Of a DNA stretch of 32,000 nt, positions 1-28,828 are shown piece after piece. The notes beneath the pieces are model-generated. The model ran no database searches. It saw nothing but the letters and a program-made list of their open reading frames with translations, and had not been told where the DNA came from. Every line of letters starts with the position of its first letter. The first letter of the stretch is position 1. Location: positions 30,001 through 62,000 of the forward strand of contig NJBF01000024.1 in assembly GCA_003144275.1 (NCBI GenBank). The letters are read 5' to 3'. Both the position numbers and the translations under genes were made by a program. Source of the stretch: Candidatus Heimdallarchaeota archaeon B3_Heim (GTDB taxonomy: Archaea > Asgardarchaeota > Heimdallarchaeia > Hodarchaeales > Hodarchaeaceae).

Positions 1-3000
1 AGTACGAGTCTAACAGTGAATGAAACCACTCTCGTGTTAACATGGCGAGAAAACACTACACTACAGATTTGGTACAATGATTCTGCTAATGTTCCAGTCT
101 CAAGCGCTTCAATAATCATAGATGGGGATAATGCTCACCCCGCTTTGTATGATCCTGGCTCAGGAGCCTATTATTATCAGCTTAATAGCACTCAATACAG
201 CGGAGTGGGAGATTATTTCAATCTCAACATCACTGCTCATCGAACTTATTATCAAAATCAGACTCTTTATTTCGACCTGACCATAATTCCCGCAGGTTCC
301 TCCATTGATGATGCATCTGTCAATCCTGTTGATTATCCGCTAGACATAACCAATGGATCAGTGTTCTCTTTTTGGGTCACCTGGTTCAGTGAGTATGGAA
401 ATCCTTTGAATGACTCAGATGGAATTGGAAGTTCTTCATCCGATGTTGTTTTAGACTCTACGAACCCAACAACAGGGAATCATACGTTTAAATTTGTACC
501 GACTACGATTGGTCCAATTAATGTCACGCTGACCTTCCAAATTAGCAATTACAATACTGCTATCTATCATATTAATGTCACCAGCATAGAAAATACGAGT
601 TTATCAGCAAATGCGACTACTATCGTGTTGAACTGGCGGGAGAATACTACTCTTGAGATATGGTATAATAATTCCTTCGGTAGTCCTATTGAAGATGCCA
701 CATTAATTGTAGATGGGGATACTGCTCATCCGGCCGTTTTTAATTATGGCACTGGTACATATTATTATCAGCTCAATAGCACTCAATACAGCGGAGTAGG
801 TACATACTTCAATCTCAATATAACTGCTAATCAAACCTATTATCAAAATCAGACTCTTTATTTCGACCTGACAATAAATCCAGCAGATTCATCTATTAAT
901 GATTCATCTGTTAACCCTGTAGACTATCCTCTTGATGTCACCAATGGGACTGCGTATTATTTCTGGGTCATTTGGTTCAGTGAGTATGGAGATCCGTTGA
1001 ACGACTCGGATGGAATTGGAAGTTCTTCATCCGATGTTGTTTTAGACTCTACTAATTCAGTAACAGGGAATCATACGTTTAAGTTTGTGCCAACAACGAT
1101 TGGTCCCATCAATGTTACCTTAACCTTCCAAATCAGTAATTACAATGCTGCTATCTTTCATATTAATGTCACTAGCATAGAAAGTACGAGTCTAACAGTA
1201 ATTGAGACTGCAATCGTGTTAATATGGCTGGAAAATGCTACACTACAAATTTGGTACAATGATTCCTCAAATACTCCTATCAATGGAGCTACGATAATCG
1301 TTGATGGAGACAATATTCATCCTGCTATTTTTAATTCTAGCTCTGGAGCTTATTATTATCAGCTTAATAGTACTCAATACAACGGAGTGGGATCATATCT
1401 CAATCTCAATATAACAGCTTACCGAACTTATTATCAAAATCAGACCCTCTACTTCGATTTAACCATCGACCCAGCAGATTCCTCAATTGATGATGCTTCT
1501 GTTGACCATGGAGACTATCCTCTTGAGATCACCAATGGGACTGCGTATTATTTCTGGGTCATTTGGTTCAGTGAGTATGGAGATCCGTTGAATGACTCGG
1601 ATGGAGTTGAGAGCTCTTCATCCGATGTTGTTTTAGACTCTACGAACCCAACAACAGGAAATCATACATTTAAGTTTGTACCAACCTCGATTGGCCCAAT
1701 CAATGTCACACTGACTTTTCAAATTAGCAATTACAATGCTGCTTTCTTTAATATTAATATAACCAGTATAGAAACCACGAGTCTAACAGTAAATGAAACC
1801 GCTATTGTACTAACTTGGCAGGGTAATACTACCTTACAGATTTGGTATAATAACTCAAGGAATAAGTCAATTGAAAGTGCAATCATTTCAGTAAATGGTG
1901 ATAATCAAAATGTGACCTATGATTCTAATTCAGGTGCCTATTACTTTCAACTTAATAGCACTCAATACAATGGAGTAGGATCATATCTCAATCTCGTTAT
2001 AACTGCTAATCAAACCTACCATCAAAATCAGACCCTCTATTTCAACCTAACCATAATTCCGGCTGATTCATCCATTACTGATGTATCTGTTGACCCAGTA
2101 GACTATCCTCTTGAGATCACCAATGGGACTGCGTTTTATTTCTGGGTTACTTGGCTTAGTGAATACGGAGATCCGTTGAACGACTCGGATGGAGTCGGGA
2201 TCTCTAGTTCAGATGGTATATTGGACTCTACGAACCCAACAACAGGGAATCATACGTTTAAATTTGTACCGACTACGATTGGTCCAATTAATGTCACGCT
2301 GACCTTTCAAATCAATAATTACAATGCTGCTATCTTTCATATAAATTTCACCAGTATAGAAAATACGAGTTTATCAGCAAATGCGACTACTATCGTGTTA
2401 ACCTGGCGGGAGAATACTACTCTTCAGATTTGGTACAATAATTCCGCAAATGATCCAGTTCCAAGTGCTATAATAATAATAAATGGGGATGATACTCACC
2501 CCGCTGTGTATGATCTTGGCTCAGGAGCTTATTATTATAACCTCAATAGTACTCAATATAGTGGAGTAGGAACTTATCTCAGTCTCAACATCACTGCTTA
2601 TCGAACTTATTATCAAAATCAAACGCGTTACTTTGACCTGACCATAAACCCAGCAGACTCCTCTGTTGGTGATACATCTGTTGACCCTTTAGACTATCCT
2701 CTTGAGATCACCAACGGGACAGCATATTACTTCTGGGTTACCTGGTTCAGTGAGTATGGAGATCCGTTGAACGACTCGGATGGAGTCGAGAGTTCTTCAT
2801 CAGATGTTGTTTTAGACTCTACGAACCCAACAACAGGGAATCATACATTTAAGTTTGTACCAACATCCAATGGCCCAATCAATGTCTCCCTAACCTTCCA
2901 AATCAGTAATTACAATGCTGCTATCTTTCATATTAATGTCACTAGCATAGAAAGTGCGAGTCTAACAGTAAATGAGACCACGATCATTTTAACTTGGCAG

Positions 3001-4430
3001 GAGAATACGACTTTACAGATATGGTATAATGACTCAAGGAATAACTCAATCGAAAGTGCATTAATCTCAGTTAATGGCGATGGTCAAAATGTGAGCTATG
3101 ATTCTAATTCAGGTGCTTATTACTATCAACTAAACAGCACTCAGTACAACGGAGTGGGAGACTATCTCAATCTCAACATCACTGCTTATCGAACTTATTA
3201 CCAAAATCAAACGCTTTACTTTGACCTGACAATAAAACCAGCAGATACCTCTTTTGATAACGCATCTGTCGACCCTGTGGACTATCCTATTGATGTCACA
3301 AATGGGTCTGCTTATTACTTCTGGGTTACCTGGTTCAGTGAATACGGAGATCCGTTGAACGACTCGGATGGAGTTGAAAGTTCTTCACCAGATGTCATAT
3401 TGGACTCTACGAACCCAACAACAGGGAATCATACATTTAAGTTTGTACCCACCACAATCGGCCCAATCAATGTCACATTGATCTTCCAAATCAGTAATTA
3501 TCTTACTGCTTTATTTCATATTAATGTCACTAGTATAGAAAGTACGAATCTGGTGGTAAATGAGACCAATATAGTGTTAATTTGGCGGGAAAATGCTACA
3601 TTACAGATTTGGTACAATGATTCTGCAATTACTCCAATTCCGAGTGCTACAATCATAGTAGGCGGAGATTATGCTCACCCCGCTGTGTATGATCCTGGTT
3701 CAGGAGCTTATTATTATCAGCTCAATAGCACTCAATACAGCGGAGTAGGAACCTATCTCAATCTCAATATCACTGCTTACCGTTCCTACTATCTAAACCA
3801 AACGATTTATTTTGACCTGACCATCAACCCAGCAGATTCGTATATTGATACTGCATCTATTGACCCTGTAGACTATCCTCTTGATGTCACCAATGGATCT
3901 GCTTATTACTTCTGGGTCACCTGGTTCAGTGAGTATGGAGATCCGTTGAACGACTCAGATGGAGTTGAGAGTTCTTCATCAGATGTTGTATTAGACTCTA
4001 CAAACCCAACAACAGGGAATCATACTTTTAAGTTTGTACCAACATCCAATGGCCTAATCAATGTCACTCTTACCTTTCAGATTAACAATTACAATACTGC
4101 TATCTTTCATATTAATGTCACTAGCATTGAAAGTACGAGCTTAACGTCAAATGAGACAAGTATCGTTTTGAACTGGCGGGAAAATGCTACACTACAGATT
4201 TGGTACAATGATTCTGCAATTACTCCAATCCCAAGTGCAACGATAATCATAGATGGTGATTATAGTCACCCCGCTGTGTATGATCCTGGTTCAGGGGCAT
4301 ATTACTATCAGCTCAATAGCACTCATTACGGAGGAGTAGGAACCTATCTCAATCTTAATGTCACTGCTTACCGTACCTATTATCTAAATCAGACGCTTTA
4401 CTTCGATTTAATCATAAACCAAGCAGATTC
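1..4430 (+). repeat. Intragenic tandem array: 7 full units of 591/588 bp plus a half unit
   Basis: Unit starts read directly at 1, 592, 1183, 1774, 2362, 2953, 3541 and 4132 (spacings 591, 591, 591, 588, 591, 588, 591). Each unit has an A half (TSL..N.T.IVL.W.EN.TLQIWYN...YFDLTI) and a B half (PADSSI...DYPL..TNG..Y.FWV.WFSEYGDPLNDSDG...NHTFKFVPT...NVTSIE). Confidence 0.95.
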
Positions 4431-6900
4431 TTCCATTGAAAACACATCATTAAAATCATTTCCAGAACTAAACAATGTCCCTTCAGATGAAAATTTCGAG
4501 TTTTGGCTAATCTGGCAGAGTGAATATAATGATTTTCTCAACGCCTCGGATGGAGTTTTAATCAATGGTACTCTCAATAATCATCCTGATGTTTATCTTT
4601 TCGATACTGATGCAAGTATTGGTAATCATTCATTTATTTTCTTCTATAGCGGAACAGCGATACTTACTTACAATTTAACGTTCATAATTGAAAACTATCT
4701 TAAACTAGAGTTCCTTATTCGCTTCAATGTCTATAATAGAACAATGATGATTGATAATGGGCTCTCTAATCCCATGAGTGGTCAAACCATAGATTTCCTA
4801 CAATACGGAGAATACTATTACTTTAGTGTTTTCATCAATGATAGTTCAACGAAATTACCTCTAAACACGACCATCCTAGACCTTCCTGATGGTGTAATTT
4901 TTCTTGATTATCCTACTGAAGGAAATCATTCTTTTAGGTATAATGCCTCAATAATCGGTAATTTTTCAAACTCAGTAATTGAATTTGCTTTACAAAATTA
5001 TAATACCTTACAATTCAACATATCTTTTATAGTCTCTCCACGTAATATGATATTAGATTCAATTAGGAGTACCCAACAATCTATTGATTATTTGCAGTAT
5101 GGAGATGTATTTTATTTCCTTGTATATATTAATGATAGTCGTACAGGAGCTCCTCTTAACATTTCTACCTTTAGTGAATTACCCCCGAACTTCTTCTTTG
5201 AAAATTTCTCTGTTACGAAAGGACACCTTTTCTGGTATCAAGCACTGGAAAGAGGAGATTTTATTTTCGAAATCAACTTTACCAAACAGAACTTTAACTC
5301 CTACCTTCATAATCTCATTTTCAATATTACAAAAGCCAATTCTGAACTAATTTCTTCCACCACCTCAATAACAACCTACTATTCAAATGATGTCGACTTC
5401 TCTCTGGTATGGCAATCTATTCCAAATCCAAATATAAGTTCAAGTCCAATACTAAGAATAATGAATACTAGCAGTATTATTATTCAACCCTCATCTCCAG
5501 AGTGGTTAAACAATATCATATTACATACATTGGAAAATGGTAATTATTCTTTTACTGTCCTCTCCAATCGAGTTGGTACTGTTGTTATTACAATCATTCC
5601 ATACTCCGACAATTACAATACAATTTCAATTGATATAGAAATAAACATACTACTTATGCCTACTTTCGATCCACAAATAAGTTTTCAGTCAGAGTTAGTT
5701 GTAGGTGAGTCATTGCTTATTTCATGTGATCAATGGAAATCTATCACTGACGTAAATGTTTCTATTGATAATTTTCAAATACTTAATAATAGTATATCAA
5801 TTGAGTATACTCCAGTTGATATAACTGAGTTTTCAATCGCTATTACACTCGATACTGAAGACTTTAGACAAGGATTCCATAACCTAACCCTTCTTGTTTC
5901 TAGTTATGGGTATGAAAACACTAGTTTAAGCATCTTTATTGAAATAATTGGCAGAGAAATCGAGATTGCAATTGAGATTTTTCCAGAAAATCTTAATCAA
6001 GGATCAGATTTCACGATTAGAGCTACACTGACATATGCTTCACTTCAAAGGGATTTAGGAGGGTTTGGCTCAGGAATATGCCTTGTACCTTTGAAAGGAG
6101 TTTCTGTATCATTTTTAGTCAATATTAAATACGAAAATGGCACTGTTCTTCCATTGGAGTATAATAATTATACAAATGCGTTAGGTGAAGCAGAATTTAC
6201 TGTGAATCGTATATATACCATTTCAGCTGTAGGAATAGAAAGTATTACAGTCACTTCAGGAGAAACAGCTTCAGGAAAAGGAAGTACTCAGTCTACTCCA
6301 CCTAATTTCTTTGATATGCACCAATTTGAAAAGAAAACTACTGAAATTCCTGAAGAGCTAATAATTTTAGGAATAATCGTCTTTCTGTTTGTCATCATCA
6401 TTGGATCTCCCATTGGTTTCTATACAATTCGAAAAAGAAAGAAAGGACAAAAAATCGTTAGTGATTCAAAAATCAAAATCTCTCCTAAACATACTCCAGA
6501 AGACCCTTCTGAAAAAGCTCCAGAGGTAACTCCAGCAATAAAAGAATTTGATGAAGCCAAAGTTCAGCCCCAGATAGAAGACAAAGTTGAAACTGAAAAA
6601 CGACAAACAAAACCCTCTCCCTGGATCGCTCAATTTCCCCCATCTGTTTCAGAGTGTGAAAAAGAAATTAGATATTTATTCATTCTAGTTTTAAGAAGGG
6701 AAGGTCAATGGCATGGAAGAACATCTTACAATTTCCTTCTTAAGAAGAGAACTGATGAGATTTCAGTAGCAAATCTAAGAAAGGTTTATACGATTCTTCC
6801 TCAACAAACAAGTTTTTTCAAGAAAGAAAAAACCTCGATTATTATCACAGAAGAGGGAAAAAGAGTAGCCTTAAGCATCTTAAAAAATAATGATCAGTAA
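1..6900 (+). CDS. Giant repetitive cell-surface glycoprotein (Ig-like tandem repeats, C-terminal TM helix, cytoplasmic tail with a wHTH-like domain); 5'-truncated by the window
   Basis: Frame 1 is open from base 1 (agt acg agt cta aca = STSLT, a repeat start), so the GTG at 16 is not the true start. The ORF has beta-rich repeats with about 11 N-x-S/T sequons each. A hydrophobic helix (LIILGIIVFLFVIIIGSPIGFYTI, ~6358-6429) is followed by RKRKK and a ~155-aa tail. Confidence 0.9.
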   Translation, partial: STSLTVNETTLVLTWRENTTLQIWYNDSANVPVSSASIIIDGDNAHPALYDPGSGAYYYQLNSTQYSGVGDYFNLNITAHRTYYQNQTLYFDLTIIPAGSSIDDASVNPVDYPLDITNGSVFSFWVTWFSEYGNPLNDSDGIGSSSSDVVLDSTNPTTGNHTFKFVPTTIGPINVTLTFQISNYNTAIYHINVTSIENTSLSANATTIVLNWRENTTLEIWYNNSFGSPIEDATLIVDGDTAHPAVFNYGTGTYYYQLNSTQYSGVGTYFNLNITANQTYYQNQTLYFDLTINPADSSINDSSVNPVDYPLDVTNGTAYYFWVIWFSEYGDPLNDSDGIGSSSSDVVLDSTNSVTGNHTFKFVPTTIGPINVTLTFQISNYNAAIFHINVTSIESTSLTVIETAIVLIWLENATLQIWYNDSSNTPINGATIIVDGDNIHPAIFNSSSGAYYYQLNSTQYNGVGSYLNLNITAYRTYYQNQTLYFDLTIDPADSSIDDASVDHGDYPLEITNGTAYYFWVIWFSEYGDPLNDSDGVESSSSDVVLDSTNPTTGNHTFKFVPTSIGPINVTLTFQISNYNAAFFNINITSIETTSLTVNETAIVLTWQGNTTLQIWYNNSRNKSIESAIISVNGDNQNVTYDSNSGAYYFQLNSTQYNGVGSYLNLVITANQTYHQNQTLYFNLTIIPADSSITDVSVDPVDYPLEITNGTAFYFWVTWLSEYGDPLNDSDGVGISSSDGILDSTNPTTGNHTFKFVPTTIGPINVTLTFQINNYNAAIFHINFTSIENTSLSANATTIVLTWRENTTLQIWYNNSANDPVPSAIIIINGDDTHPAVYDLGSGAYYYNLNSTQYSGVGTYLSLNITAYRTYYQNQTRYFDLTINPADSSVGDTSVDPLDYPLEITNGTAYYFWVTWFSEYGDPLNDSDGVESSSSDVVLDSTNPTTGNHTFKFVPTSNGPINVSLTFQISNYNAAIFHINVTSIESASLTVNETTIILTWQENTTLQIWYNDSRNNSIESALISVNGDGQNVSYDSNSGAYYYQLNSTQYNGVGDYLNLNITAYRTYYQNQTLYFDLTIKPADTSFDNASVDPVDYPIDVTNGSAYYFWVTWFSEYGDPLNDSDGVESSSPDVILDSTNPTTGNHTFKFVPTTIGPINVTLIFQISNYLTALFHINVTSIESTNLVVNETNIVLIWRENATLQIWYNDSAITPIPSATIIVGGDYAHPAVYDPGSGAYYYQLNSTQYSGVGTYLNLNITAYRSYYLNQTIYFDLTINPADSYIDTASIDPVDYPLDVTNGSAYYFWVTWFSEYGDPLNDSDGVESSSSDVVLDSTNPTTGNHTFKFVPTSNGLINVTLTFQINNYNTAIFHINVTSIESTSLTSNETSIVLNWRENATLQIWYNDSAITPIPSATIIIDGDYSHPAVYDPGSGAYYYQLNSTHYGGVGTYLNLNVTAYRTYYLNQTLYFDLIINQADSSIENTSLKSFPELNNVPSDENFEFWLIWQSEYNDFLNASDGVLINGTLNNHPDVYLFDTDASIGNHSFIFFYSGTAILTYNLTFIIENYLKLEFLIRFNVYNRTMMIDNGLSNPMSGQTIDFLQYGEYYYFSVFINDSSTKLPLNTTILDLPDGVIFLDYPTEGNHSFRYNASIIGNFSNSVIEFALQNYNTLQFNISFIVSPRNMILDSIRSTQQSIDYLQYGDVFYFLVYINDSRTGAPLNISTFSELPPNFFFENFSVTKGHLFWYQALERGDFIFEINFTKQNFNSYLHNLIFNITKANSELISSTTSITTYYSNDVDFSLVWQSIPNPNISSSPILRIMNTSSIIIQPSSPEWLNNIILHTLENGNYSFTVLSNRVGTVVITIIPYSDNYNTISIDIEINILLMPTFDPQISFQSELVVGESLLISCDQWKSITDVNVSIDNFQILNNSISIEYTPVDITEFSIAITLDTEDFRQGFHNLTLLVSSYGYENTSLSIFIEIIGREIEIAIEIFPENLNQGSDFTIRATLTYASLQRDLGGFGSGICLVPLKGVSVSFLVNIKYENGTVLPLEYNNYTNALGEAEFTVNRIYTISAVGIESITVTSGETASGKGSTQSTPPNFFDMHQFEKKTTEIPEELIILGIIVFLFVIIIGSPIGFYTIRKRKKGQKIVSDSKIKISPKHTPEDPSEKAPEVTPAIKEFDEAKVQPQIEDKVETEKRQTKPSPWIAQFPPSVSECEKEIRYLFILVLRREGQWHGRTSYNFLLKKRTDEISVANLRKVYTILPQQTSFFKKEKTSIIITEEGKRVALSILKNNDQ

Positions 6901-7368: not shown

Positions 7369-10300
7369 ATGACTCATTGGAAGAAGATAACTAAGAAATA
7401 TTTGCCTAACCTGTTAATCATTTCGTCATTAATAATAACAATCATACCAATAAATATGATAACATCAATTTATCTAATTGAAAGTGTAGAAAAGGATATT
7501 TATGGTAATTCGATCTTGAAGGGATCTGAAGGATTTACCAAGATTCCTAGATTGACACAAGAATCTTTTACCTACTTTTCTTATGGAGGTGAGGGAAGGG
7601 GTGAAAATCTTGACCTTTCTTCTCAACCTTTTAACAATAGATTACCAGATTTCGCTATTAGATCTCAAAAAGGGGAAGGTGGAAGCTCTTTCACAGTTGA
7701 AGATTATTTAACTCTAACGGGGAGTGATGCTGTTCCTGTAAATGATAATCATTGGCAAACAAATCCAGAAGAACATGAAGACCAGTATCCACTAACCATT
7801 CCAGCAAATTTTGTTAATTCTTCATTGACGCTGAACATTTCCGATGTCATAGCTATAGATGACTGGCGATTGATTGAAAATGACAGTGACTCAGCTGACC
7901 CCCGTACTTCCACAATTTTTTCTGAGTTTGCGCAGGAATTTGTGGTTGAGGAAGATTATGTTAACGTCTCCTCACTTCGCTTGTTCATCGATATGGATGA
8001 TACGGATGGGGGTGATGGGCAGAAACCCCATGGAAAGCTTTTACTTCTGAATGACACCTCAGGATCCCCTGATGATAGTGACGTGCTTCATAGTCAAGCT
8101 CTAGAAAGCCATTCCTCCATAGCGGGACTACTTGATGGAAATGATTGGGCAGGTTGGTTGGATTATTCTATTTCCCCCGAAGTGATTCTTCCGAAAGGAA
8201 CGTATTGGTTCGCTTTAAATGATACAAAGGATGGGGGTACGGGAAGCTGGAATTGGCACACCGTGGATGATAGTGGTCAAATCGATAATGGAGATGTCTA
8301 TTTCAAATTTGATCATGGAGATTCTTGGGGACCATATATCGCTTGTGATATCGTCATGATGCCCAAAGTCTGCCCAGTTAAGAATATCAGTTCCACCTAC
8401 CCAGCGAAAGAATATACTGATCCAACAGCGTTGGTATTTCAGTATAAAACATCAATTGACGCTACAAATTTGAGTACATTTACTATGTTCGAGGGAAATA
8501 TGACCAGTGATAACATACACACTTTTAATGTAAATACCTCTGTTAATTTCACGTTATCTTGGTGGATTGAAGTCAATTACACAAATAATCCTATTATCCC
8601 CTCAGTTCACTATTTTGTGGAAAACACAACAACATTACCAAAATGGAATCTTACTTTTGTTACAAATATTGTTTCTACAGTCTATAACATTCGAAATCGT
8701 TCCATAAATGTTTTTAATTTACCTAATGATTGGGCTGAAGGAGCAATTTTCCATGATGGTTCATTAGTTTATAATTCAACCAATTCTGGAGGATTTAATG
8801 GATCTATAGGTTATAATGATGGAGATAGTAACCTGATTGTCAACGCTTCTACTCTTTCTGGAACAAAAACCTGGGATATTTCCTTTAATGCACCTAATTA
8901 CATTACAGAGTTCAACTGGTTTGATCAGATTCTTGGATCAAATGTTACTTTCGCCACTTCTATGGATACACTTAAACCAAAAATTACATTTAAAACACCA
9001 AATGAAGGAGGGTATAATTTTAGTGTCTGGATTGAGTCTCAATCAGGAACGAGGATCTATACGGATTGTAATAAAACTGTGGGTGAGATAGCTAATGATT
9101 GGAACATTACGGAAACAACTGCATCGTTACCTGTAGTCAATGGAACTTATCAGACATATGCATTCTGGGAGAATACCACAGAAAATCAAGTGGGCTTCTA
9201 TGCTCGCAATATTACTGTTTTTATCCATACTACACCTATTATAAACGCCCCAACAGAGGTAATTGAAGATACTTCATTAGAGATTATAGTCTATTATAAC
9301 GCGACTCACAATTCAACTGGAGTAAATAATGCTAATGTGACTGGTATGCCAGATTGGGGGGATCAAAAACCCGTTCAATTTGAACATTCATATTCTCCTC
9401 ATGGATATTACAACTATACATGGGATATTAATAGTTCTCATTTAGCAGGCCAACAACTCAATATAACAATTTTTCTTGAAATGCCTTGGCATATAAACCA
9501 TACAGTTGTTTGGAATACAACTGTTGTCTATACCAGTACAATCACGGCATTAGATGTTCCAAATCCTTTGATTTTAGAATACGGACAGAGTTACCTTCTG
9601 AGAGTCAATTATTCATCGGGAACCACATTTATCTCTGGAGCTACTATGATTGTAGATGGAGATAATGAAAATTTTACAGAAGAACCGAAACATTTCTCCT
9701 ATCTGCTATACACAACAAATTACAATAGCGGGGAAAGTTATTCTAATCTACTTATTCACCTCAATAACTCGGGTTATCTTTCGCAAGAATTGTATTTCAA
9801 CTTGACCATCACGGCGGGGCCAACAAGTGTTCATCAGGCCTATACACCTATAATAGCCTCTATTTATTATACTGAGAGTTATTCATTTGCTGTGTTCTAT
9901 GAAAATACTGTGGATAATGAAGGAATCACAAATGCGGATTCTTCTACCAGTCATCCATCAGCGATTGATTTCTGGTATTCTAATTCAAGTGGATATTACT
10001 TTTTCAATTTGAGTTCAAGTTCGCTATCTCTAGGTTCTTATACAATTAACGTTACTCTTAATCATTCTATCTATCAAGAAAATTTCATATTACTGACATT
10101 CAACATTGTGGAAATGTCTACACAACCTTTAGATTCTTATAGTATTAGTAGTGATCAAATTATGGTAGAAGAAACCATTACAGTAACTATAGATGAGTTT
10201 CAAACTTACAAATCAGATAGCATTGGTACAATAGATAACGCATCAATTCTGTTAAATGGCTCCTCTGTTGATCCTAGTCTTGTTTCTTTTTCATCAAATG

Positions 10301-11658
10301 CTCCGTTTTCAATAGTACTAGACACAGCAGGTGTCCAATATGGAAAATACAATATGACGATCATTTTAAGCATTTATGGATATGAAAACCAAGCAATTTC
10401 ATTTAATGTTTCTATAGATGGATATGAAACAGAAATAAGTGTTGAAATAAAACCTGGAACGAACATCCGACAAGGTGAAGACATTATTTTTATTGCTACT
10501 TTAGCTTATGTCACTGAAGGTGGAGCTGGAGCGGGGGTCACTCAACAGGTTCCCCTAGGAAGAGTAATTATCACCTTTTATATTGTATTAGAATACGATA
10601 ATGGGACTACACAAATCTACGAGGGAACAGAACTGACTGATGATTCAAGTTATCGAGCTACGTACACTATTGATGGTATCTATACTATAGATGCTGTTAA
10701 ACTCACAAACATTACAATCCACTCATCTCCTGGCTTATCAGGCTTACCTTATACTTATAAGATGTCAGCTACTGAATTAGAAACCTATGAAATCCTTCCA
10801 CCAGCAATAGACATTTTTGAATTAATCACTACTGTTTTAATTGCTGTGGTAGTTGTATTGATCTCTTTAGTCATTGCAGTTAGCACTATTCGTGTATTTC
10901 GTCGTAGAAGAAGATCCCGTAAACAACTCATTTTAAGACATGATATTGCTGTTGAGCAAAGCTTTGAAGACATAAAATCGATTCGTTTAATTTTAGCTCG
11001 TCATCAATCAGGCTTACAATTCTATTCAGAAAAAACCATTGCTGAGCTCCAAACAGATACTGATGCTTTGTCTGGTATGAGTGCTGCTTTGTCCTCTTTC
11101 ATGGAAGAACTGTCAGAAAGCATGACTTCCCAGTCTGAGGAGGTAAAAGAGCGTGATAAAATTGAATTTCTCAGTCGTGAGGGTTTACACATGTTAATTT
11201 GGCACGGTAATCATTCCAGTTTTATCATTATCTCCGAGGTGCGATTACCTGAGTATTTCCAATCTCATTTGAAAGCTTTGGGAAACGAACTTGAGGATAA
11301 ATACACGGCTGAATTGCAAGACTTCTATAGCAGCGACCAAATCCCTAATACCGTTGTTAAGAAGATGGTAAGGAAGTATATCCCTCTCCACTACTTTTCT
11401 GCTTACGTAGCAAACGAAGGAGTTCTCACACTTGATTCTGTGAAGTTATCACGAAAACAGGCTAAGATGTTCAACGAAATTAAGAAGGTGATGTTTAAAA
11501 TTGAAGGAGCCCATTATTTCTTCTCTGAACAAATTATTTCGCATCTTTCCAAACGGTATAAACGTAGTGAAGCCATAGAATTCCTGGATCAGGCGATTAA
11601 AATCAATCTACTTATTGAAGCTGAACAAGAAGATTTACTGCAGTTGACTAAACTTTGA
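7369..11658 (+). CDS. Large single-pass membrane glycoprotein with Ig-like ectodomain and cytoplasmic longin-like plus probable wHTH domain
   Basis: N-terminal hydrophobic signal/anchor; sequon-rich ectodomain; TM helix LITTVLIAVVVVLISLVIAVSTIRVF (~10822-10899) followed by RRRRRSRK. The cytoplasmic LILARHQSGLQFYS...DALSGMSAALSSFMEEL...IEFLSREGLHMLIWHG..SSFIIIS pattern is typical of longin/roadblock-type folds. Confidence 0.8.
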   Translation: MTHWKKITKKYLPNLLIISSLIITIIPINMITSIYLIESVEKDIYGNSILKGSEGFTKIPRLTQESFTYFSYGGEGRGENLDLSSQPFNNRLPDFAIRSQKGEGGSSFTVEDYLTLTGSDAVPVNDNHWQTNPEEHEDQYPLTIPANFVNSSLTLNISDVIAIDDWRLIENDSDSADPRTSTIFSEFAQEFVVEEDYVNVSSLRLFIDMDDTDGGDGQKPHGKLLLLNDTSGSPDDSDVLHSQALESHSSIAGLLDGNDWAGWLDYSISPEVILPKGTYWFALNDTKDGGTGSWNWHTVDDSGQIDNGDVYFKFDHGDSWGPYIACDIVMMPKVCPVKNISSTYPAKEYTDPTALVFQYKTSIDATNLSTFTMFEGNMTSDNIHTFNVNTSVNFTLSWWIEVNYTNNPIIPSVHYFVENTTTLPKWNLTFVTNIVSTVYNIRNRSINVFNLPNDWAEGAIFHDGSLVYNSTNSGGFNGSIGYNDGDSNLIVNASTLSGTKTWDISFNAPNYITEFNWFDQILGSNVTFATSMDTLKPKITFKTPNEGGYNFSVWIESQSGTRIYTDCNKTVGEIANDWNITETTASLPVVNGTYQTYAFWENTTENQVGFYARNITVFIHTTPIINAPTEVIEDTSLEIIVYYNATHNSTGVNNANVTGMPDWGDQKPVQFEHSYSPHGYYNYTWDINSSHLAGQQLNITIFLEMPWHINHTVVWNTTVVYTSTITALDVPNPLILEYGQSYLLRVNYSSGTTFISGATMIVDGDNENFTEEPKHFSYLLYTTNYNSGESYSNLLIHLNNSGYLSQELYFNLTITAGPTSVHQAYTPIIASIYYTESYSFAVFYENTVDNEGITNADSSTSHPSAIDFWYSNSSGYYFFNLSSSSLSLGSYTINVTLNHSIYQENFILLTFNIVEMSTQPLDSYSISSDQIMVEETITVTIDEFQTYKSDSIGTIDNASILLNGSSVDPSLVSFSSNAPFSIVLDTAGVQYGKYNMTIILSIYGYENQAISFNVSIDGYETEISVEIKPGTNIRQGEDIIFIATLAYVTEGGAGAGVTQQVPLGRVIITFYIVLEYDNGTTQIYEGTELTDDSSYRATYTIDGIYTIDAVKLTNITIHSSPGLSGLPYTYKMSATELETYEILPPAIDIFELITTVLIAVVVVLISLVIAVSTIRVFRRRRRSRKQLILRHDIAVEQSFEDIKSIRLILARHQSGLQFYSEKTIAELQTDTDALSGMSAALSSFMEELSESMTSQSEEVKERDKIEFLSREGLHMLIWHGNHSSFIIISEVRLPEYFQSHLKALGNELEDKYTAELQDFYSSDQIPNTVVKKMVRKYIPLHYFSAYVANEGVLTLDSVKLSRKQAKMFNEIKKVMFKIEGAHYFFSEQIISHLSKRYKRSEAIEFLDQAIKINLLIEAEQEDLLQLTKL

Positions 11659-11691
11659 CAAACCAAAATTGATGATTGGAGCAATTATCTT

Positions 11692-12615
11692 ATGATAGGG
11701 AATTATTATCGATTTTGGCTCATTAACGAGCAAGGTTTGTATATTATCGACCAAAAACTTCAACGTCAAATAATCCTTACAAAAACTGATGAAGATAAAT
11801 TGATTGCTGAACTTTATAATGATCCAGCTCTTGAAATGGATGATACTGCTATACTTCAGAAGAATCTACCTGAGTATGCGTTTTCTCGTTTATATTATCA
11901 GAAGTACAAGAAAGATTTATACATTCTTTTAGCAGACGAAATGATTGATATCACGGACATCGATTTACAGCTCCAAACTCGGCGAAAAGAGCGTGATACA
12001 CAACGAAAGAATTTAATAGGTATTGTAGTGGCAGCTTTTGATGATGCTAGGGGACCTAAGGTGGTTTATAGTCCCAGTTTCATTAATGAGGAAACTACAT
12101 TGTTACTAGCCGTACAAGGGCAGACAATATCCTATATGGGGAAACTAAACGAATTTAAGGCTGGATTTAAGGAACCTCTAAATGTTCCCAATCGTACGGA
12201 TATGATACATGTAAGTTACGATTTCTTGGTTCCTGCTCCAAATAGTAAAGATCCTAGAATTGCATTGACAGGCAGGGTAATGAACTTATTTTTACTATTT
12301 CCTCGCAATTTACCATATTTAAAGGAAAAATCATTTTTACAATTCATTGAATCATTTATTGAGGAGTGGGTCCGTAATTGGATCGACTTTCAGAAAGAGA
12401 ATGAGGGTAAATATCCAGTCAAATGGTTTGATGATCTCGTAGAAAATTTACGATCAACGGTAAATATTGCTATCGATTTAGCGACTCACGATGAAAGAGA
12501 AATAAGAAAACTAAAAGACTTTGTAATGGATATTCTAGCTCAAAATCAAGTCCTAACATATCAAGTCCAGAAGTTAAAGAAAAAAATTAGGAAGCTAGAA
12601 GGGAAGGAGCCCTAA
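11692..12615 (+). CDS. uDENN/NPRL2-like longin-domain protein with C-terminal coiled coil
   Basis: GIVVAAFDDARGPKVVYSP resembles the first strands of uDENN/NPR2/folliculin-type longins (hhhxxFDxxxGPxhxY). It also carries a later DPR...G...hhLLF motif and a heptad-like C-terminus (NQVLTYQVQKLKKKIRKLE). Starts 33 nt after the upstream gene, with GGAG ahead of the ATG. Confidence 0.65.
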   Translation: MIGNYYRFWLINEQGLYIIDQKLQRQIILTKTDEDKLIAELYNDPALEMDDTAILQKNLPEYAFSRLYYQKYKKDLYILLADEMIDITDIDLQLQTRRKERDTQRKNLIGIVVAAFDDARGPKVVYSPSFINEETTLLLAVQGQTISYMGKLNEFKAGFKEPLNVPNRTDMIHVSYDFLVPAPNSKDPRIALTGRVMNLFLLFPRNLPYLKEKSFLQFIESFIEEWVRNWIDFQKENEGKYPVKWFDDLVENLRSTVNIAIDLATHDEREIRKLKDFVMDILAQNQVLTYQVQKLKKKIRKLEGKEP

Positions 12616-12825
12616 TGTTCCTCACTGAATGCTATTAAATTGATACTATCATAATATAGCTTGTTTTGTTTTATTTTTTACATGCTTTCCAAATTTTATG
12701 CCCTTTATTCATAATGTCGGATCCAAGAGACGAATAAATGGAAAAGAGAGAAAATATGCACGAAGTTAATTCAATAAGCTACATAAATAAAGGTCAACAT
12801 AGTAGGTTAGACAATTCAAATCGAA

Positions 12826-12842
12826 TGAAGGAAATTCCTTCA
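12826..12842. promoter_or_regulatory. 17-bp palindrome (TGAAGGAA-A-TTCCTTCA), candidate operator upstream of the gelsolin gene
   Basis: Perfect 8-bp inverted repeat read directly; lies about 45 nt upstream of a BRE/TATA-like element. Confidence 0.4.
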
Positions 12843-12885
12843 CTGAAAAAATCTCTTTGATTTTGGTTAAAAGAGAGAATAAAAA

Positions 12886-12904
12886 TCGAAAACTACTTAT
12901 TAAC
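12886..12904 (+). promoter_or_regulatory. Putative BRE + TATA box of the gelsolin gene
   Basis: CGAAAA followed by CTTATTAA, about 25 nt upstream of ATG 12927, which fits archaeal spacing. Confidence 0.4.
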
Positions 12905-12926
12905 TCACATTAAAGGTTGATTGTTC

Positions 12927-14156
12927 ATGCGTGTGTTACATGTTCAAGGAAAAAAACTAGTTGAAATAAACAAGAAAAATGGATCCTTTGAATTCTTGAA
13001 TGGGGACGTATATATCATTGATAATTCTGATGTCTCCGCAGGCCTCAAGAAAAAGGTGTTCATCTGGTTAGGATCTCAAGCATATGCTGATGATAGAGCA
13101 GTTGGTGCTTGGGCTGCAAAACAATTGGATCTCGCTGATAAAGAAATAGATATCGACACTGAAGTCGAAGGAAATGAATCAGCTGAGTTTAAAGGATTAT
13201 TAGAATTCGTAGTCGTGACAGGAGACACACCTGGCTTTCTAAAGCACGTAGAAGTAAATAAAGAAGACATTAGCTATGCTCTTTACAGAGTCCGTGATAC
13301 TGATCTTTCAGATGGTTCATCATCAGATGATATAGCAATTGAAAAAGTACCTTTGAACCGTGAAAGCTTTGTCTCTGATGACGTATTTGTATTGGATGCT
13401 TTCGATGATCTGTATGTCTGGGTTGGTGCCAGCTCACAGATCGGTGAAAAAGTTGCAGGAAATCGTGTGGCACGGAAATTAGATGTAGATCGTGATAGAA
13501 CCCCCATGGTTTACCAAATTAGAGAAGGGTACGAACCAGAGGGTTTTTGGGATCTTTTTAATTCCATAAGCAGCAGTGGTTTAACACGGAAAGACGATTC
13601 ATCTGCTATTAGTGCAAGTATGAGTGGTTCTCTTACTGATCTAACTGCTCCAGTAGAACCAGCAACACCTCCTGCTGAATTAGCTCCTCCACCTTCTAGT
13701 ACTTCAACAGGTGAAATTTCAGGTCCACCACGAGAAGAACAATACGTTCCAAAACCTCCTCCAATAAAAGATGAACCTAAACCAAAACCCGAACCTACAC
13801 CCCAACCAGTTCAGACTGGTTTCGGAGTAGCGCCCACAGCCCCCGTACCATCTAGAAAGACCCAATATACTTTATATTATGTCGACGGTGAATTTACTGA
13901 ATTAGGGGGAAGTGAATCTGCAACTCTTGAGATCAATGAGTCCACAAAGACAGCTGTTCTTTCATTTGCGGGGGGGTCAAGTTTAATAGCCCAAAGAACT
14001 GCTGGCCGCCAAGCACGAGGTATTTGTAAATCAGGTTTCGCTGTTAAGGCAGGTTACAGAATTGGCATAAAATGTGACCTTCAAGAAGTTCGTGGGGAAG
14101 AGGACATGGAACAGCGAGTTCAAAGATATAGAGAAGAAGGACGCAAATACGTTTAA
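12927..14156 (+). CDS. Gelsolin-family actin regulator: two gelsolin domains, Pro-rich linker, degenerate third gelsolin-like domain
   Basis: Domain 1: FLNGDVYIID...VFIWLGSQA...EVEGNESAEF. Domain 2: SFVSDDVFVLD...LYVWVGASS..GEK...REGYEPEGFW. The ATG at 12927 is preferred to the TTG at 12921 in the ORF track. Confidence 0.88.
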   Translation: MRVLHVQGKKLVEINKKNGSFEFLNGDVYIIDNSDVSAGLKKKVFIWLGSQAYADDRAVGAWAAKQLDLADKEIDIDTEVEGNESAEFKGLLEFVVVTGDTPGFLKHVEVNKEDISYALYRVRDTDLSDGSSSDDIAIEKVPLNRESFVSDDVFVLDAFDDLYVWVGASSQIGEKVAGNRVARKLDVDRDRTPMVYQIREGYEPEGFWDLFNSISSSGLTRKDDSSAISASMSGSLTDLTAPVEPATPPAELAPPPSSTSTGEISGPPREEQYVPKPPPIKDEPKPKPEPTPQPVQTGFGVAPTAPVPSRKTQYTLYYVDGEFTELGGSESATLEINESTKTAVLSFAGGSSLIAQRTAGRQARGICKSGFAVKAGYRIGIKCDLQEVRGEEDMEQRVQRYREEGRKYV

Positions 14157-14210: not shown

Positions 14211-15419
14211 TCATAAGGATAAGACAATCTCATTATGTATTTGAAGCATTTCTTCTAGAATTAACGAAATCGTTTCGGGAACGTCAGAAAGAACATTCAA
14301 TGGAATACACCTTTTTGCGTTCACACTAGCCAGTAAAATTTCATTTAACCCCCGAAGAATCATATCAGGAGAAAACCATGGTCTTTTGGAAGCCCACCAC
14401 TGTTGACAGCTGTGTATTCCACGATCTAAAAAAGTACGAGCATTATCAAATAGTCGTTTTTGATCTGAATCCATTATTTCATAATATTTCTGGAGTAGAT
14501 TAACGGTCGTAAGGGCATACATTATGAACTGATGTTGTTTTTGATGTAATTCATTCGATGGTTCAAACCACAAGGGAAACGGTACATTTCTCTCTAAATC
14601 ATAAGGCATGGTACTCCAACTGGAAGCTCTTGGTATTTGGGTCTCCCCCTTGGGAAATTTTTCAACAATCTCAGACACTGTACACAAACGAATATCATGC
14701 CTTGAAGGTAAATCATGGAATAATGGTAATAAAAAGTCTTTAATAGAATGTTTAACATGGTGTCCGAATGTTTCTCCGTCCATTGCAAGAATAATATAAT
14801 AATCATGATCCTGTGCCTTGTATTTAAGTCGGTTTGCAAAAGCTTCTACATTGTTTAGCTTATCAAAAGCACAGTCAATTGAAATATAATCATCTCGAAA
14901 AACAAGATTTATCCCGCTTGAATGATGCTGTGAGATTACTGTTGTGGGAAAATCAGGCAAAGTATTTGCGATCCCTGATGCAATTACCCAATCAAACTTT
15001 AATTTTCTTAATGCAGGAAAAATTTCCTCGCTAATAGCCATTTCAGGAGGAAAAAAGCCTCTTGGTTTATACACACTCCCAAAGTATTTCTTATTAGTAT
15101 CATTATTCAGCTGAATTTGTCTAATTACTTCAGGTTCTGGAATGAGGGGTAATAGAGGATGAAACTTTGCAGAACCTGTGAAATCAATCTGATTCCGAGA
15201 TGCCAATGTTGTTATCTCTTCAATAATTTCTCCATATCCATAATCATCAAGTTGCTCTGTTAAAGTGGCATTAATGTTTAAGCTAATCTTTGTCTGAGGA
15301 TTTTCTTTAAGAGCATTAACAAGGGGACGGTAGGATTCATTGACAATCTTCTTGACGACAGGAGCTATCTGTACAGGAGGTTGATAGATATGCAATAGAA
15401 ATGCAAAGTATACAGTCAT
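14211..15419 (-). CDS. Glycoside hydrolase family 57 (alpha-amylase/amylopullulanase-like)
   Basis: GH57 conserved regions: LHIYQP, GFFPPEMA (catalytic Glu), AMDGETFGHH (catalytic Asp), SSWS. Confidence 0.9.
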   Translation of the reverse strand: MTVYFAFLLHIYQPPVQIAPVVKKIVNESYRPLVNALKENPQTKISLNINATLTEQLDDYGYGEIIEEITTLASRNQIDFTGSAKFHPLLPLIPEPEVIRQIQLNNDTNKKYFGSVYKPRGFFPPEMAISEEIFPALRKLKFDWVIASGIANTLPDFPTTVISQHHSSGINLVFRDDYISIDCAFDKLNNVEAFANRLKYKAQDHDYYIILAMDGETFGHHVKHSIKDFLLPLFHDLPSRHDIRLCTVSEIVEKFPKGETQIPRASSWSTMPYDLERNVPFPLWFEPSNELHQKQHQFIMYALTTVNLLQKYYEIMDSDQKRLFDNARTFLDRGIHSCQQWWASKRPWFSPDMILRGLNEILLASVNAKRCIPLNVLSDVPETISLILEEMLQIHNEIVLSL

Positions 15420-15449
15420 TTGAAATCCCCAGCTTTTGTTGGTTGATTG

Positions 15450-16199
15450 TTAGAATTTTCCCATCGCTTCCTTTAGAAGGACTCGTGTATCGTGACTGTA
15501 CCAACTATCAACAAACGATCTAATATGAGAATCTAATCCTGTTTTTATTTGATCAACTACTGGCATCTTTAAGTCAAGTTTGATCTTTGCAAAGGTTAAT
15601 GATGGATTTTTAGCCAATGATTGGCATTTATCCAATGAATATTCAAATAATTCATCAGGAGGAATAATTTCATCGATAATTCCAATTTCTAGAAGCGATT
15701 CAGGTGGGTGAAATTCACCGTTATAAACAAAATCTTTTGTATGCTCTGATCCAATCATATTTTCGAGAATCTGTAAAGCAGGATAAGGTACTGGTACTCC
15801 CAATTTAATTTCATTCAATCCCATAAGTTTCCTTTCCTGAGAAATGAATCTATAATCACAACAAAGCGCCAAGATGCACCCACCAGCTATGGCATGCCCA
15901 TTTATTATTGCAATAGTCGGTTTAGGGAATAGATATAATTCAATACATAATTCATTAAATGCAGTATAAAATTGAGTAAATTTCTCTCTAGTATATTCAT
16001 ATAATTCGGGAATGTTAAGCCCGATGGAGAAGAATTTCGTATTAGCGCTAGTTAGGATGATAGCCCTAATTTCCTCGTCACTACCCATCTCAAGTAATTT
16101 TGCTCTTAGTTCAGAGACCAATTTAGGGCCAATAGCATTTGTTACTTCATTATTTAATTCAATAACTGCGATTTTTTGCTTAATTGTAATTTTTAGCAT
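15450..16199 (-). CDS. Crotonase-family enoyl-CoA hydratase/isomerase (delta3-delta2 isomerase-like)
   Basis: FFSIGLNI, PKPTIAIINGHAIAGGCILALCCDYR, GLNEIKLG. Only one catalytic Glu is present. Confidence 0.9.
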   Translation of the reverse strand: MLKITIKQKIAVIELNNEVTNAIGPKLVSELRAKLLEMGSDEEIRAIILTSANTKFFSIGLNIPELYEYTREKFTQFYTAFNELCIELYLFPKPTIAIINGHAIAGGCILALCCDYRFISQERKLMGLNEIKLGVPVPYPALQILENMIGSEHTKDFVYNGEFHPPESLLEIGIIDEIIPPDELFEYSLDKCQSLAKNPSLTFAKIKLDLKMPVVDQIKTGLDSHIRSFVDSWYSHDTRVLLKEAMGKF

Positions 16200-27040: not shown

Positions 27041-28828
27041 ATGCTAAGTCTGAAATCAGCAATTTATATAATCATAGTCAGTATTATATCGGCTAGCTTA
27101 GTCTCCTCATTGGTAGTAATGAATACATTGTCAACTTCCTCACTCCCAACTGAAATTGAGGACAATGCCGAGGATAAGTTACTTATTACAACCACAATTC
27201 AAGCCCGTCAAATTGCCTCACAATTGGGCAGAACGGAATCTGTTATCAACGCGATGAGTGCTTTTGCAGAGCAAATATGGACTGATACTACGATTCCTGA
27301 CATTCCTAGTTTTTATCATGACGAAAACGTGCTTAATAACCCTCCAACCGATGTTTATTATGATGAGGTTTACGAGCGAAGACTTTCTCATCTCTACTCG
27401 GGTTATAAGATCGCCCCAACAGCATTTGAGGAATCATATCAAGACAGTTATTTAACAAGTATTCAAGAAACTGAAAATCCTTTATCACACATTAACAGTA
27501 CGGTGATGGCTGCAATCAACCGTTCAGCAAAAATGGACATGGTTTTCCGACAGCTCTATGAGGCTTATCCAGAACATGTTTGGCTCTATATGGGGTACGA
27601 GTATGGCTTTCATAGATCTTTTCCCTGGCATGGGCCATATTCTCGTACTTATGATCCAAGGACACGTCCTTGGTATATCGGAGCAATTACTGGAGCGAAA
27701 GATGCGGTTATCATCATGGATATAAGCGGAAGCATGCAGGGTACTCCACTTACAAATACCAAAACTGCAATGAAATCCGTACTGAAAACATTAGGACCTA
27801 AGGATCGATTTACTGTTCTCTCTTTTTCTGCCGATGTAGATGAGTGGGACAATACTTTACAAATCGCTTCTCCTTCAAATATCAATGATGCCTCTTCTTA
27901 CATCGATGATCGTAGCTCGGGAGGAAACACAAATATTAATAGCGCACTTCTAGAAGGTCTTGAAATTTTAGAAAAACATGGAACCTCTGATCGCACACCC
28001 ATGCTTATATTCATGACTGATGGTGAAGCGACCTCAGGCATAACAGAATCTGATTTAATATTATCTAACGTCGCTACTGCGAATGTAATGGGAGCTAGAA
28101 TGTTTGTTTTTGGATTAGGTACTGAAATTGATCAACAGCTCTTACTAAACCTTGGATCTCAAAATGATGGAGGGACAGTTTTTGTGTTCGATTCTGAAGA
28201 TCTAACAGATGCTATGAACCTTTATTATAAATTTTTTACCTCACAAATTGATAATGCTATTAGTTGGTCATGGCCTTACGTAGATGCGAGTGGTTGGGGT
28301 ATAGTAATAACTGCTTCCAAGCCAGTAACAGTTAATGGTACTCTATTAGGAGTCGTTGGAGCAGATTTAACTCTCAATTCACTCATAGACACACTTGCAG
28401 ATTTACAGCCTTCAGATAATGGTTACAACTTCATCTTTGATACAGGTAATATAGCTCTAATCCATCCTAGCTTTACCGATCTACCTATTGGAGATTGGCA
28501 AGAAGAAGAAGTAAGAGTACCTATTTCTACATTGGAAAGTTCCTCAAATAGCTTTATCTCTCTAGTTGATCGTGTTAATCTTGGGATCCCTACAGCAGGT
28601 ACAGTCTATTATGGTACCGAAAAACGTGTTGTGGCAATGGCTCCAATTGGAGAAACTTCCATGCACTTAGCTTCTGTAGCCCCAATCTTAGAATTTCTTG
28701 ATCCAACAACCATTACTGCATTAAAAGGAGTTAGCACCTTCGCTCTGCTTTGGCTTGGAGGCAGTATTTCTGTAGGTACAATAGCTGCACTAGTATTAGT
28801 GATAAAATTCAAGGAGGACTTTCATTGA
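27041..28828 (+). CDS. Membrane-anchored dCache_1 protein with inserted VWA domain (alpha2delta/CACHD1-like)
   Basis: TM at both ends. YDPRTRPWY (27650) runs directly into a VWA domain (KDAVIIMDISGS MIDAS, GGNTNI, FMTDG), after which dCache resumes (SWSWPYVDASGWGIVITASKPV...GVVGADL, GYNFIFD..G.ALIHP). Confidence 0.9.
   Translation: MLSLKSAIYIIIVSIISASLVSSLVVMNTLSTSSLPTEIEDNAEDKLLITTTIQARQIASQLGRTESVINAMSAFAEQIWTDTTIPDIPSFYHDENVLNNPPTDVYYDEVYERRLSHLYSGYKIAPTAFEESYQDSYLTSIQETENPLSHINSTVMAAINRSAKMDMVFRQLYEAYPEHVWLYMGYEYGFHRSFPWHGPYSRTYDPRTRPWYIGAITGAKDAVIIMDISGSMQGTPLTNTKTAMKSVLKTLGPKDRFTVLSFSADVDEWDNTLQIASPSNINDASSYIDDRSSGGNTNINSALLEGLEILEKHGTSDRTPMLIFMTDGEATSGITESDLILSNVATANVMGARMFVFGLGTEIDQQLLLNLGSQNDGGTVFVFDSEDLTDAMNLYYKFFTSQIDNAISWSWPYVDASGWGIVITASKPVTVNGTLLGVVGADLTLNSLIDTLADLQPSDNGYNFIFDTGNIALIHPSFTDLPIGDWQEEEVRVPISTLESSSNSFISLVDRVNLGIPTAGTVYYGTEKRVVAMAPIGETSMHLASVAPILEFLDPTTITALKGVSTFALLWLGGSISVGTIAALVLVIKFKEDFH

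Follow-up and report, generated by a model that had tools for sequence, protein, structure and literature searches.

The 32,000-nucleotide (nt) window analysed here (positions 30,001 to 62,000 of contig NJBF01000024.1, Candidatus Heimdallarchaeota archaeon B3_Heim) contains three plus-strand genes, designated A, B and C, which encode a large membrane protein with a predicted cytoplasmic longin domain, a soluble protein with a second longin domain resembling those of folliculin, SMCR8 and NPRL2, and a gelsolin. A and B probably constitute one functional unit. The chances are about even that this unit regulates a small GTPase from an anchorage in the membrane, in which case B is the catalytic-type subunit and the receptor tail is its partner or anchor devoid of the Gly-Pro (GP) motif, and a place for the gelsolin in the same pathway is possible, if doubtful. 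The source genome, of 3.95 Mb, is of the Hodarchaeales type (Heimdallarchaeia, Asgard), and the neighbourhood survey comprised 83 genomes of the class. The open reading frames (ORFs) bear out the layout given in the original prediction, three consecutive co-oriented genes of which the first two are exactly 33 nt apart. The three genes, the lengths of their products in amino acids (aa) and the elements between them are as follows (AF2, AlphaFold2 model).

7369..11658, plus strand: gene A, type I surface glycoprotein, 1429 aa (ORF, translation)
11659..11691, plus strand: A-B spacer, 33 nt (sequence)
11678-11681, plus strand: GGAG in the A-B spacer, 10 nt ahead of the B ATG (sequence)
11692..12615, plus strand: gene B, soluble 307-aa protein (AF2, fold searches, homologues)
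12661..12679, plus strand: T-rich run 46 nt past the B stop, possible archaeal terminator (sequence only)
12878-12886 and 12915-12920, plus strand: TATA-like AT-rich element and GGTTGA, ahead of the gelsolin ATG at 12927 (sequence)
12921..14156, plus strand: gene C, gelsolin, 411 aa (Pfam, linker composition, Atlas leads)

The B orthogroup is present as a single copy in 18 of the 21 genomes of one genus-level clade of Hodarchaeales and in none of the 61 genomes elsewhere in the class. At all 17 loci with both genes on one contig, coordinate comparison places B directly downstream of an ORF with the A-type tail and on the same strand, and the adjacency stays 17/17 while B itself falls to 51% identity. 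The spacers between the two genes are short in the relatives as well, from 6 to about 130 nt, and A and B are probably co-transcribed. A gelsolin orthologue of 58-95% identity follows B in 18 of 19 loci, and the B-linked type of A, B and the gelsolin are jointly missing from the same three of 22 genomes. One genome, G055, is informative with regard to the cohesion of the trio: its A-B pair is located between a DNA-alkylation-repair gene and GH3/GH94 genes, with entirely different flanks. A and B are still together there when everything else has been rearranged, and it is from B that the gelsolin has been parted. Conservation of the neighbourhood across Heimdallarchaeia, which the original prediction named as a check, does not hold: the A-B pair is invariant within the one genus-level clade and confined to it.

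Receptors bearing the same tail occur in one to six copies per genome of the clade, and no B homologue was found among the neighbours of the paralogous ones. Weaker matches, covering the longin part only, extend to three other families; these distant longin-tailed proteins share the layout of signal segment, sequons (45-63 of them), membrane helix and tail (about 260-290 aa). In one sediment RNA library six short contigs of 90-99% identity, all but one of them at ≥95%, cover positions 10787-11572, in the tail of A, and 13311-13697, in the gelsolin gene; depth is low, carry-over of DNA is possible, no contig bridges two genes, and B and the rest of A are uncovered, a gap that proves nothing.

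The product of A is best explained as a heavily N-glycosylated, single-pass protein with its ectodomain facing outward and a presumably cytoplasmic tail composed of a longin and a winged-helix domain. The succession of hydrophobic segment, ectodomain, membrane helix, stop-transfer sequence and tail is common to all relatives of A. Its parts are listed below (VIA, structural alignment with VIA-align).

7402..7482, plus strand: N-terminal hydrophobic signal or anchor segment, about aa 12-38 (hydropathy windows)
7483..10818, plus strand: ectodomain, aa 39-1150, sequon-rich and beta-rich (sequon count, stalk identity)
10819..10893, plus strand: transmembrane helix, aa 1151-1175, then the polybasic stop-transfer RRRRRSRK (hydropathy, sequence)
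10978..11388, plus strand: cytoplasmic longin domain, aa 1204-1340, tail residues 29-165 (AF2 model, VIA, Foldseek, invariant columns)
11383..11634, plus strand: winged-helix-like C-terminal domain, aa 1339-1422 (VIA structural match)

The ectodomain contains 47 NxS/T sequons, against 18.3 ± 3.8 expected (2000 composition shuffles, maximum 31), and the 254-aa tail (aa 1176-1429) only one, in agreement with the glycosylated ectodomain that had been proposed. A Pfam search of ectodomain and tail returned nothing significant, and for the tip of the ectodomain there are only lectin-like and DUF4082 leads from the Atlas (feature-search scores ≤0.86). Members of the A family are proteins of 808-2498 aa with a common tail of 51-92% identity, whereas the ectodomain head, of 27-75% identity, diverges faster; the tail of A changes about half as fast as the ectodomain. 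A slowly changing tail combined with a fast ectodomain is compatible with an outer face that diversifies and is coupled to an inner interface under constraint.

The membrane-proximal stalk of A is 33% identical over 235 aa to the giant surface protein encoded immediately upstream (window 1-6900, plus strand). The 5' end of that ORF is open, giving at least 2299 aa, and its counterparts in relatives comprise 3279-4139 aa. The protein consists of repeats, with a single membrane helix at about aa 2114-2145 and, after it, a cytoplasmic tail of about 150 aa, unlike that of A, with a charged linker and a small C-terminal domain; its Nup96 Pfam match rests on a short stretch only. At two other loci (L008:6578-7855 and L010:6796-7866, both plus strand) a separate protein of 356-425 aa, 42% identical between the loci, precedes paralogous longin-tailed receptors, and by eye it resembles the N-terminal 'tip' domain of the receptor family.

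The longin fold expected at 10970-11400 was recovered at 10978-11388 by AF2 modelling, VIA-align and Foldseek alike. The model of the tail (residues 1176-1429), built on 28 homologues, consists of a juxtamembrane helix, a beta-beta-alpha-beta-beta-beta-alpha domain and a small alpha/beta C-terminal domain. DSSP assigns strands to tail residues 30-37, 42-47, 89-95, 98-104 and 108-114 and helices to 56-79 and 121-142, helix 2-28 being the juxtamembrane segment; in the model this is the longin topology, with no N-terminal helix inside the domain. Among solved longins the VIA-align matches, over about 120 residues, are synbindin (Z 12.8), Sec22 (11.7), VAMP7 (11.3) and sedlin (10.6), and Asgard longin and roadblock structures are matched as well. 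Foldseek returned AP2 sigma (4e-5), other adaptor sigma subunits, zeta-COP, Sec22b and MglB, with a probability of 1.00. The beta1-beta2 loop of the tail reads S-G-L, and the tail is therefore without a GP motif. Its last 80 or so residues match the winged-helix-type RRE domain 6ec8_A (Z 9.3, root-mean-square deviation 2.1 over 81 residues) and, with Z 7.3 in VIA, 7ly4_A, and an Atlas feature search with the tail gave TrmB/helix-turn-helix leads only (scores ≤0.86). The tail profile found chance-level matches only among the Protein Data Bank (PDB) sequences, the chance matches of the tail and B searches being the GCN4 zipper and influenza HA2. No soluble protein consisting of the tail by itself turned up in a search, whose matches were all fragments of the tail-bearing receptors on short contigs.

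B has 53 close homologues, all of the Hodarchaeales type, and its AF2 model (predicted local distance difference test score, pLDDT, 82.5) shows two alpha/beta domains in tandem, then long helices at the C-terminal end (residues 243-302), with the following features.

11692..12012, plus strand: domain 1, aa 1-107, roadblock/longin-superfamily core (VIA)
12013..12486, plus strand: domain 2, aa 108-265, folliculin/SMCR8/NPRL2-type longin (VIA)
12052..12057, plus strand: GP motif G121-P122, opening beta2 (121-126) (DSSP, alignments)
12244..12276, plus strand: S185-x-D187-x-R189-I ... G194-R195 loop between beta3 and beta4, with candidate arginine finger(s) (alignments)
12487..12597, plus strand: C-terminal heptad coiled coil, aa 266-302 (long helices in the model)

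Domain 2 (residues 106-265 in VIA) is most similar to the Lokiarchaeota Roadblock-Longin protein 8yqg_B (Z 13.3) and then to Lst4 (12.2), FLCN (11.1), C9orf72 (10.7), NPRL2 (10.0) and FNIP2 (10.0), the last five placing it nearest to the longins of the family that acts as GTPase-activating proteins (GAPs). Domain 1 is matched by Gse1 (Z 10.5), the roadblock domain of LokiRagO (10.2), a Streptomyces Roadblock protein (10.0) and the Sec22 longin (9.9); the roadblock-type matches, MglB and LAMTOR included, at Z 9-10.5, are tied with the Sec22 longin, and the domain begins with a strand, not a helix, and has no PF03259 match in Pfam. With the whole of B, the top Foldseek matches are the multi-longin guanine nucleotide exchange factors (GEFs) Mon1/Ccz1 and BLOC-3, and NPRL2 is matched as well. 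The loop after beta1 (110-117) leads straight into G121-P122. Neither this GP motif nor the S-x-D-x-R...G-R loop varies among 23 orthologues, the source genome's three stand-alone paralogues (about 340 aa each) and nine remote full-length homologues of 22-28% identity, which come from Hodarchaeales and one metagenome-assembled genome labelled Odinarchaeota. In FLCN the beta3-beta4 loop holds R164, to which R189 or R195 may correspond.

According to a recent study (PMC12290439), the GP motif is present in the GAP longins FLCN, NPRL2, SMCR8 and C9orf72 and absent from those of FNIP2, NPRL3, DENND, TRAPP and the adaptins, and a class of Heimdallarchaeial longins carries it. Because the motif is there described as specific to GAP longins and absent from DENND, B is more likely to be a GAP than a GEF, as far as its sequence indicates. 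The earlier label 'uDENN-like' can be kept for B at the level of the fold superfamily; the DENN identity has to be abandoned, as B has neither cDENN nor dDENN and does have the GP motif. The tripartite DENN module is not found in its 307 aa, and DENND1A matches domain 1 only (Z 8.7). No C-terminal DENN module, nor a TINI or CTD module, follows the longin of B, which ends in the coiled coil; through this B is probably a dimer. Pfam searches of B gave nothing significant. The Folliculin family PF11704 does not match B and has only sub-threshold matches genome-wide, to the tails of other receptors. The B profile found nothing above chance level among PDB sequences (GCN4 zipper, E 0.24; influenza HA2, E 0.013 or weaker across the B and tail searches), and hhalign detected no sequence relation between B and the tail. 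At two loci of remote B-family genes from different lineages (L034:3759-4073 and L035:1787-2104, both minus strand) the convergent neighbours encode proteins of 104 and 105 aa, 32% identical to each other and located away from ATPase operons, which match Pfam V-ATPase_G (35.0 and 34.3 bits; cut-off 28.6), a match in which coiled-coil bias is possible.

Roadblock-type platforms regulate a Ras-like GTPase in the MglB/MglA system and in the conservon of Streptomyces (membrane sensor, Roadblock protein, DUF742 protein and small GTPase), where they act together with the sensor. Domain 1 of B resembles MglB and the Streptomyces Roadblock protein (Z 9.3-10.0; MglB via PMC10933270), but in the locus described here the platform is fused to a receptor, the partner is a longin of the eukaryotic GAP type and the cluster contains no GTPase gene. 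The likeness to FLCN-FNIP (Lst7-Lst4), the GATOR1 pair NPRL2-NPRL3 and SMCR8-C9orf72 includes the longin fold of domain 2 (Z 10-12), the GP motif ahead of beta2, arginine(s) conserved between beta3 and beta4, and the encoding of a catalytic-type longin (B) beside a GP-less one (the tail), a pairing recalling FLCN/FNIP and NPRL2/NPRL3 that is known here from the genes. A paralogue of B is also linked to Rag-type GTPase genes. B differs from these GAP complexes in having no DENN or C-terminal module, in ending in a coiled coil and in starting with an additional roadblock/longin core; its partner is the tail of a single-pass glycoprotein and not a soluble protein recruited to the lysosome, and no match exists at the sequence level, PF11704 included. 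The best structural match of the B longin, the Lokiarchaeota Roadblock-Longin protein (8yqg, 8yqk; 146 of 157 residues), combines a roadblock and a longin in one chain according to the entry titles, with the roadblock first, as in B, when read from the residue numbers; its sequence is not matched by the B profile. The longins of the 'FLCN/SMCR8 type' in Heimdallarchaeia (PMC12290439, Traffic 2025) share with B the lineage and the signature motifs, namely the GP motif and an arginine finger, for which B has candidates, and GAP activity on Arf-related or Rag GTPases has been proposed for them; in the accessible portion of that paper they are described as soluble, and neither the roadblock-longin-coiled-coil architecture nor a receptor pairing or a gelsolin neighbour is reported. 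The tail of A, for its part, has the longin SNAREs Sec22b, VAMP7 and Ykt6 among its top matches (Z 11.3-11.7), which are likewise membrane-anchored with a cytoplasmic longin. Their topology and size are the opposite, since these tail-anchored proteins begin with the longin, contain a SNARE helix and lack an ectodomain, whereas A has an ectodomain of about 1100 aa, a longin after the membrane helix and no SNARE motif.

As regards a client GTPase, the nearest paralogue of the B longin (339 aa, contig C49 of the source genome) is convergent with, and 23 nt from, a Gtr1/RagA-type GTPase gene (Pfam 7.8e-37), and the same pairing of longin and Rag is present in no fewer than 16 genomes of the clade, among them the rearranged G055. 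It points to Rag-like GTPases as clients of the longin family to which B belongs, the association being at the level of the paralogue and not of B itself. The C49 segment (G000:C49:16000-30000, L018) holds the end of a 3079-aa receptor with a weakly folliculin-like tail, two Gtr1/RagA-type GTPase genes (735 and 311 aa) and the 339-aa GP-motif longin, which is convergent with the second of them. In relatives, a gene pair for an Arf/Ras-like GTPase and a metallophosphatase lies about 9 kb downstream of the trio (L001:20011-20598, L002:12340-12918) and, at another locus, 2.6 kb upstream of a paralogous receptor (L008:4800-5345); the orthologous pair of the source genome is on another contig, C47. 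This Arf-like GTPase was considered as the client and set aside, being off the contig studied here, and therefore no client can be named from the neighbourhood.

The identification of C as a gelsolin was correct: PF00626 matches with E 1.3e-24 and 86.3 bits (cut-off 21) in two repeats (aa 1-235). A Ser/Pro-rich linker (aa 236-310, some 75 residues, 29% Pro) comes next, and then a domain of some 90 residues (aa 311-400), which the Atlas places near small Asgard gelsolin-like proteins and eukaryotic gelsolin/villin (TM 0.67/0.79; a lead only) and which is probably a third gelsolin-like domain, on the structural comparison. The two N-terminal repeats correspond to those of the Asgard protein 2DGel. 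ProGel, 1DGelX and 2DGel sever, cap and bundle actin in vitro (PMC7444086, PMC9433394), but none of them has the linker and C-terminal domain added in C. By analogy with the assayed gelsolins of Thor-, Loki- and Heimdallarchaeota (PMC7444086, PMC9433394), C would bind, sever or cap actin. The start codon is probably the ATG at 12927, as MRV is kept in L001 and the Atlas record begins there. The B-gelsolin spacer is 305 nt long; GGTTGA-ATG-CGT-GT is kept in L001 and the rest of the spacer does not align. A conserved promoter, sought by aligning the B-gelsolin spacers of relatives, could not be recognised in sequences so diverged. C is best explained as an ordinary actin regulator of extended architecture with what appear to be its own expression signals. 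With these start signals and its separation from A-B in one genome, the gelsolin is the weaker link of the trio, as had been foreseen.

In the mechanism proposed here, A and B would position a longin/roadblock platform on the cytoplasmic side of the cell membrane, where B would dock on the receptor tail as FLCN does on FNIP and NPRL2 on NPRL3. The complex would act on a small GTPase of the Rag or Arf kind, more probably as a GAP than as a GEF, and events at the cell surface would thereby be tied to a GTPase switch; the single B may also serve the other receptors with the same tail. A link from A-B to the gelsolin is conceivable and is the least supported step. Taken in one piece, the chain in which a glycoprotein receptor recruits a folliculin-type longin GAP by longin-longin contact, switches a Rag/Arf-like GTPase at the plasma membrane and steers gelsolin-dependent actin remodelling is quite unlikely. 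Several observations weigh against the mechanism. No small GTPase gene is present in the window or on its contig, while the genome has at least 30 Arf/Ras-like ones elsewhere. Only one of the five tail models is confident (pLDDT 76.8, the other four 42-55), and the nearest folds of the modelled tail are longins of SNAREs, TRAPP and adaptors, many of which are not GTPase regulators. Neither B nor the tail has a sequence-level link to FLCN or to any solved longin, R189 and R195 are candidate arginine finger(s) by their position in the loop, and the two roadblock/longin-type domains modelled within B could pair with each other. The longin-tailed receptors of other Heimdallarchaeial families have no B homologue beside them, and the remote full-length homologues of B have no receptor as a neighbour. 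The 17 A-B loci are not independent, because the pairing is confined to one genus-level clade, in which the region is broadly syntenic, with SerRS, PAC2, CDC48 and HSP20 also kept. As for the gelsolin, in G055 a distance of 146 kb separates it from A-B, and its neighbours there are a transporter gene and a P-type ATPase gene; at L006 an additional gene of 245 aa is inserted between B and the gelsolin. A complex prediction for the tail and B, run without controls, scored 0.00 and gave no verdict; it counts neither way.

Three other explanations deserve consideration. A and B may be a structural or sorting unit without any GTPase, the tail serving trafficking, clustering or anchoring and B, as a coiled-coil dimer, cross-linking or chaperoning the tails. 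The structural matches of the tail to synbindin, Sec22, VAMP7, sedlin and adaptor sigma/mu subunits would suit such a role, as would the predicted dimerising coiled coil of B, the resemblance of the A ectodomain to the adjacent giant protein within what is a cluster of surface proteins, and the lack of a GTPase gene nearby. It would leave unexplained, however, that homologues of B as remote as 22% identity still carry its GP motif and arginine loop unchanged, the GP motif being tied to GAP longins in PMC12290439, and that a paralogue of B is coupled to Rag-type GTPase genes; this explanation is unlikely. The full outside-in module of the original prediction, in which contact of the ectodomain with a ligand or substrate is relayed through the tail-B longin pair and a small GTPase to the gelsolin and to local actin remodelling, in analogy to adhesion signalling, is unlikely. 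It draws on the retention of all three genes in 18/19 loci and their joint loss from the same three genomes, while the flanks vary: MFS, GH57/enoyl-CoA hydratase or nothing downstream, the giant adhesin or PfkB/LMWPc upstream. Asgard cells crawl on gelsolin-regulated actin and an ARF GTPase co-purifies with Lokiactin (PMC13716822), and the proline-rich linker of the gelsolin could recruit partners. Yet the gelsolin stands behind a 305-nt spacer with a T-run and has start signals of its own, the two exceptional loci G055 and L006 separate it from A-B, and the genomes all come from a single clade in which background synteny is strong. That background is the basis of the third explanation, by which three genes unrelated in function were simply kept together in a young clade; the conservation of the housekeeping neighbours and the remote homologues of B that stand alone agree with it as well. 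This explanation is very unlikely, given that A and B persist side by side in G055 where every other neighbour differs, that same-strand spacers are short and contain GGAG, and that adjacency is complete with B at 51% identity; for the gelsolin, inherited synteny is the null hypothesis.

Elsewhere in the window, genes for a GH57 protein and an enoyl-CoA hydratase (14211-16199, minus strand) occupy the place between the gelsolin gene and SerRS where relatives carry a gene for an MFS (major facilitator superfamily) transporter, and are a local replacement of it. Two adjoining genes at 27041-30084 (plus strand) encode sensor proteins, one with VWA and dCache_1 domains and one with dCache_1, and a leucine-rich-repeat protein with a weak N-terminal match to a prokaryotic RING finger is encoded at 30261-31745 (plus strand).

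Platforms of longin and roadblock domains are, together with Rag and Arf GTPases, central to membrane identity and nutrient signalling in eukaryotes. Asgard longins, roadblocks and Rag-like GTPases are known (PMC10933270), as are Asgard gelsolins (PMC7444086); a literature search found no description of a longin-tailed single-pass receptor or of its pairing with a GAP-type longin. Asgard genomes have many parts of this kind, and matching them to one another is very hard because the genes of GTPases and their regulators are rarely in operons (PMC10933270). Here the order of genes fixes one such pairing, that of a surface receptor tail with a GAP-type longin, which along with the paralogous longin beside a Rag-type gene provides concrete pairs of proteins to test. 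If the proposed mechanism is true, a folliculin-type switch would have been wired to the archaeal cell surface earlier than to lysosomes. The study showing that Asgard cells crawl on actin names no surface receptors or adhesion molecules (PMC13716822), so A-B would then be a candidate for such a receptor or adhesion role; if the whole chain as far as the gelsolin were at work, the trio would represent a prokaryotic forerunner of lysosomal Rag-longin signalling and of signalling from adhesion to the cytoskeleton, in the closest archaeal relatives of eukaryotes.

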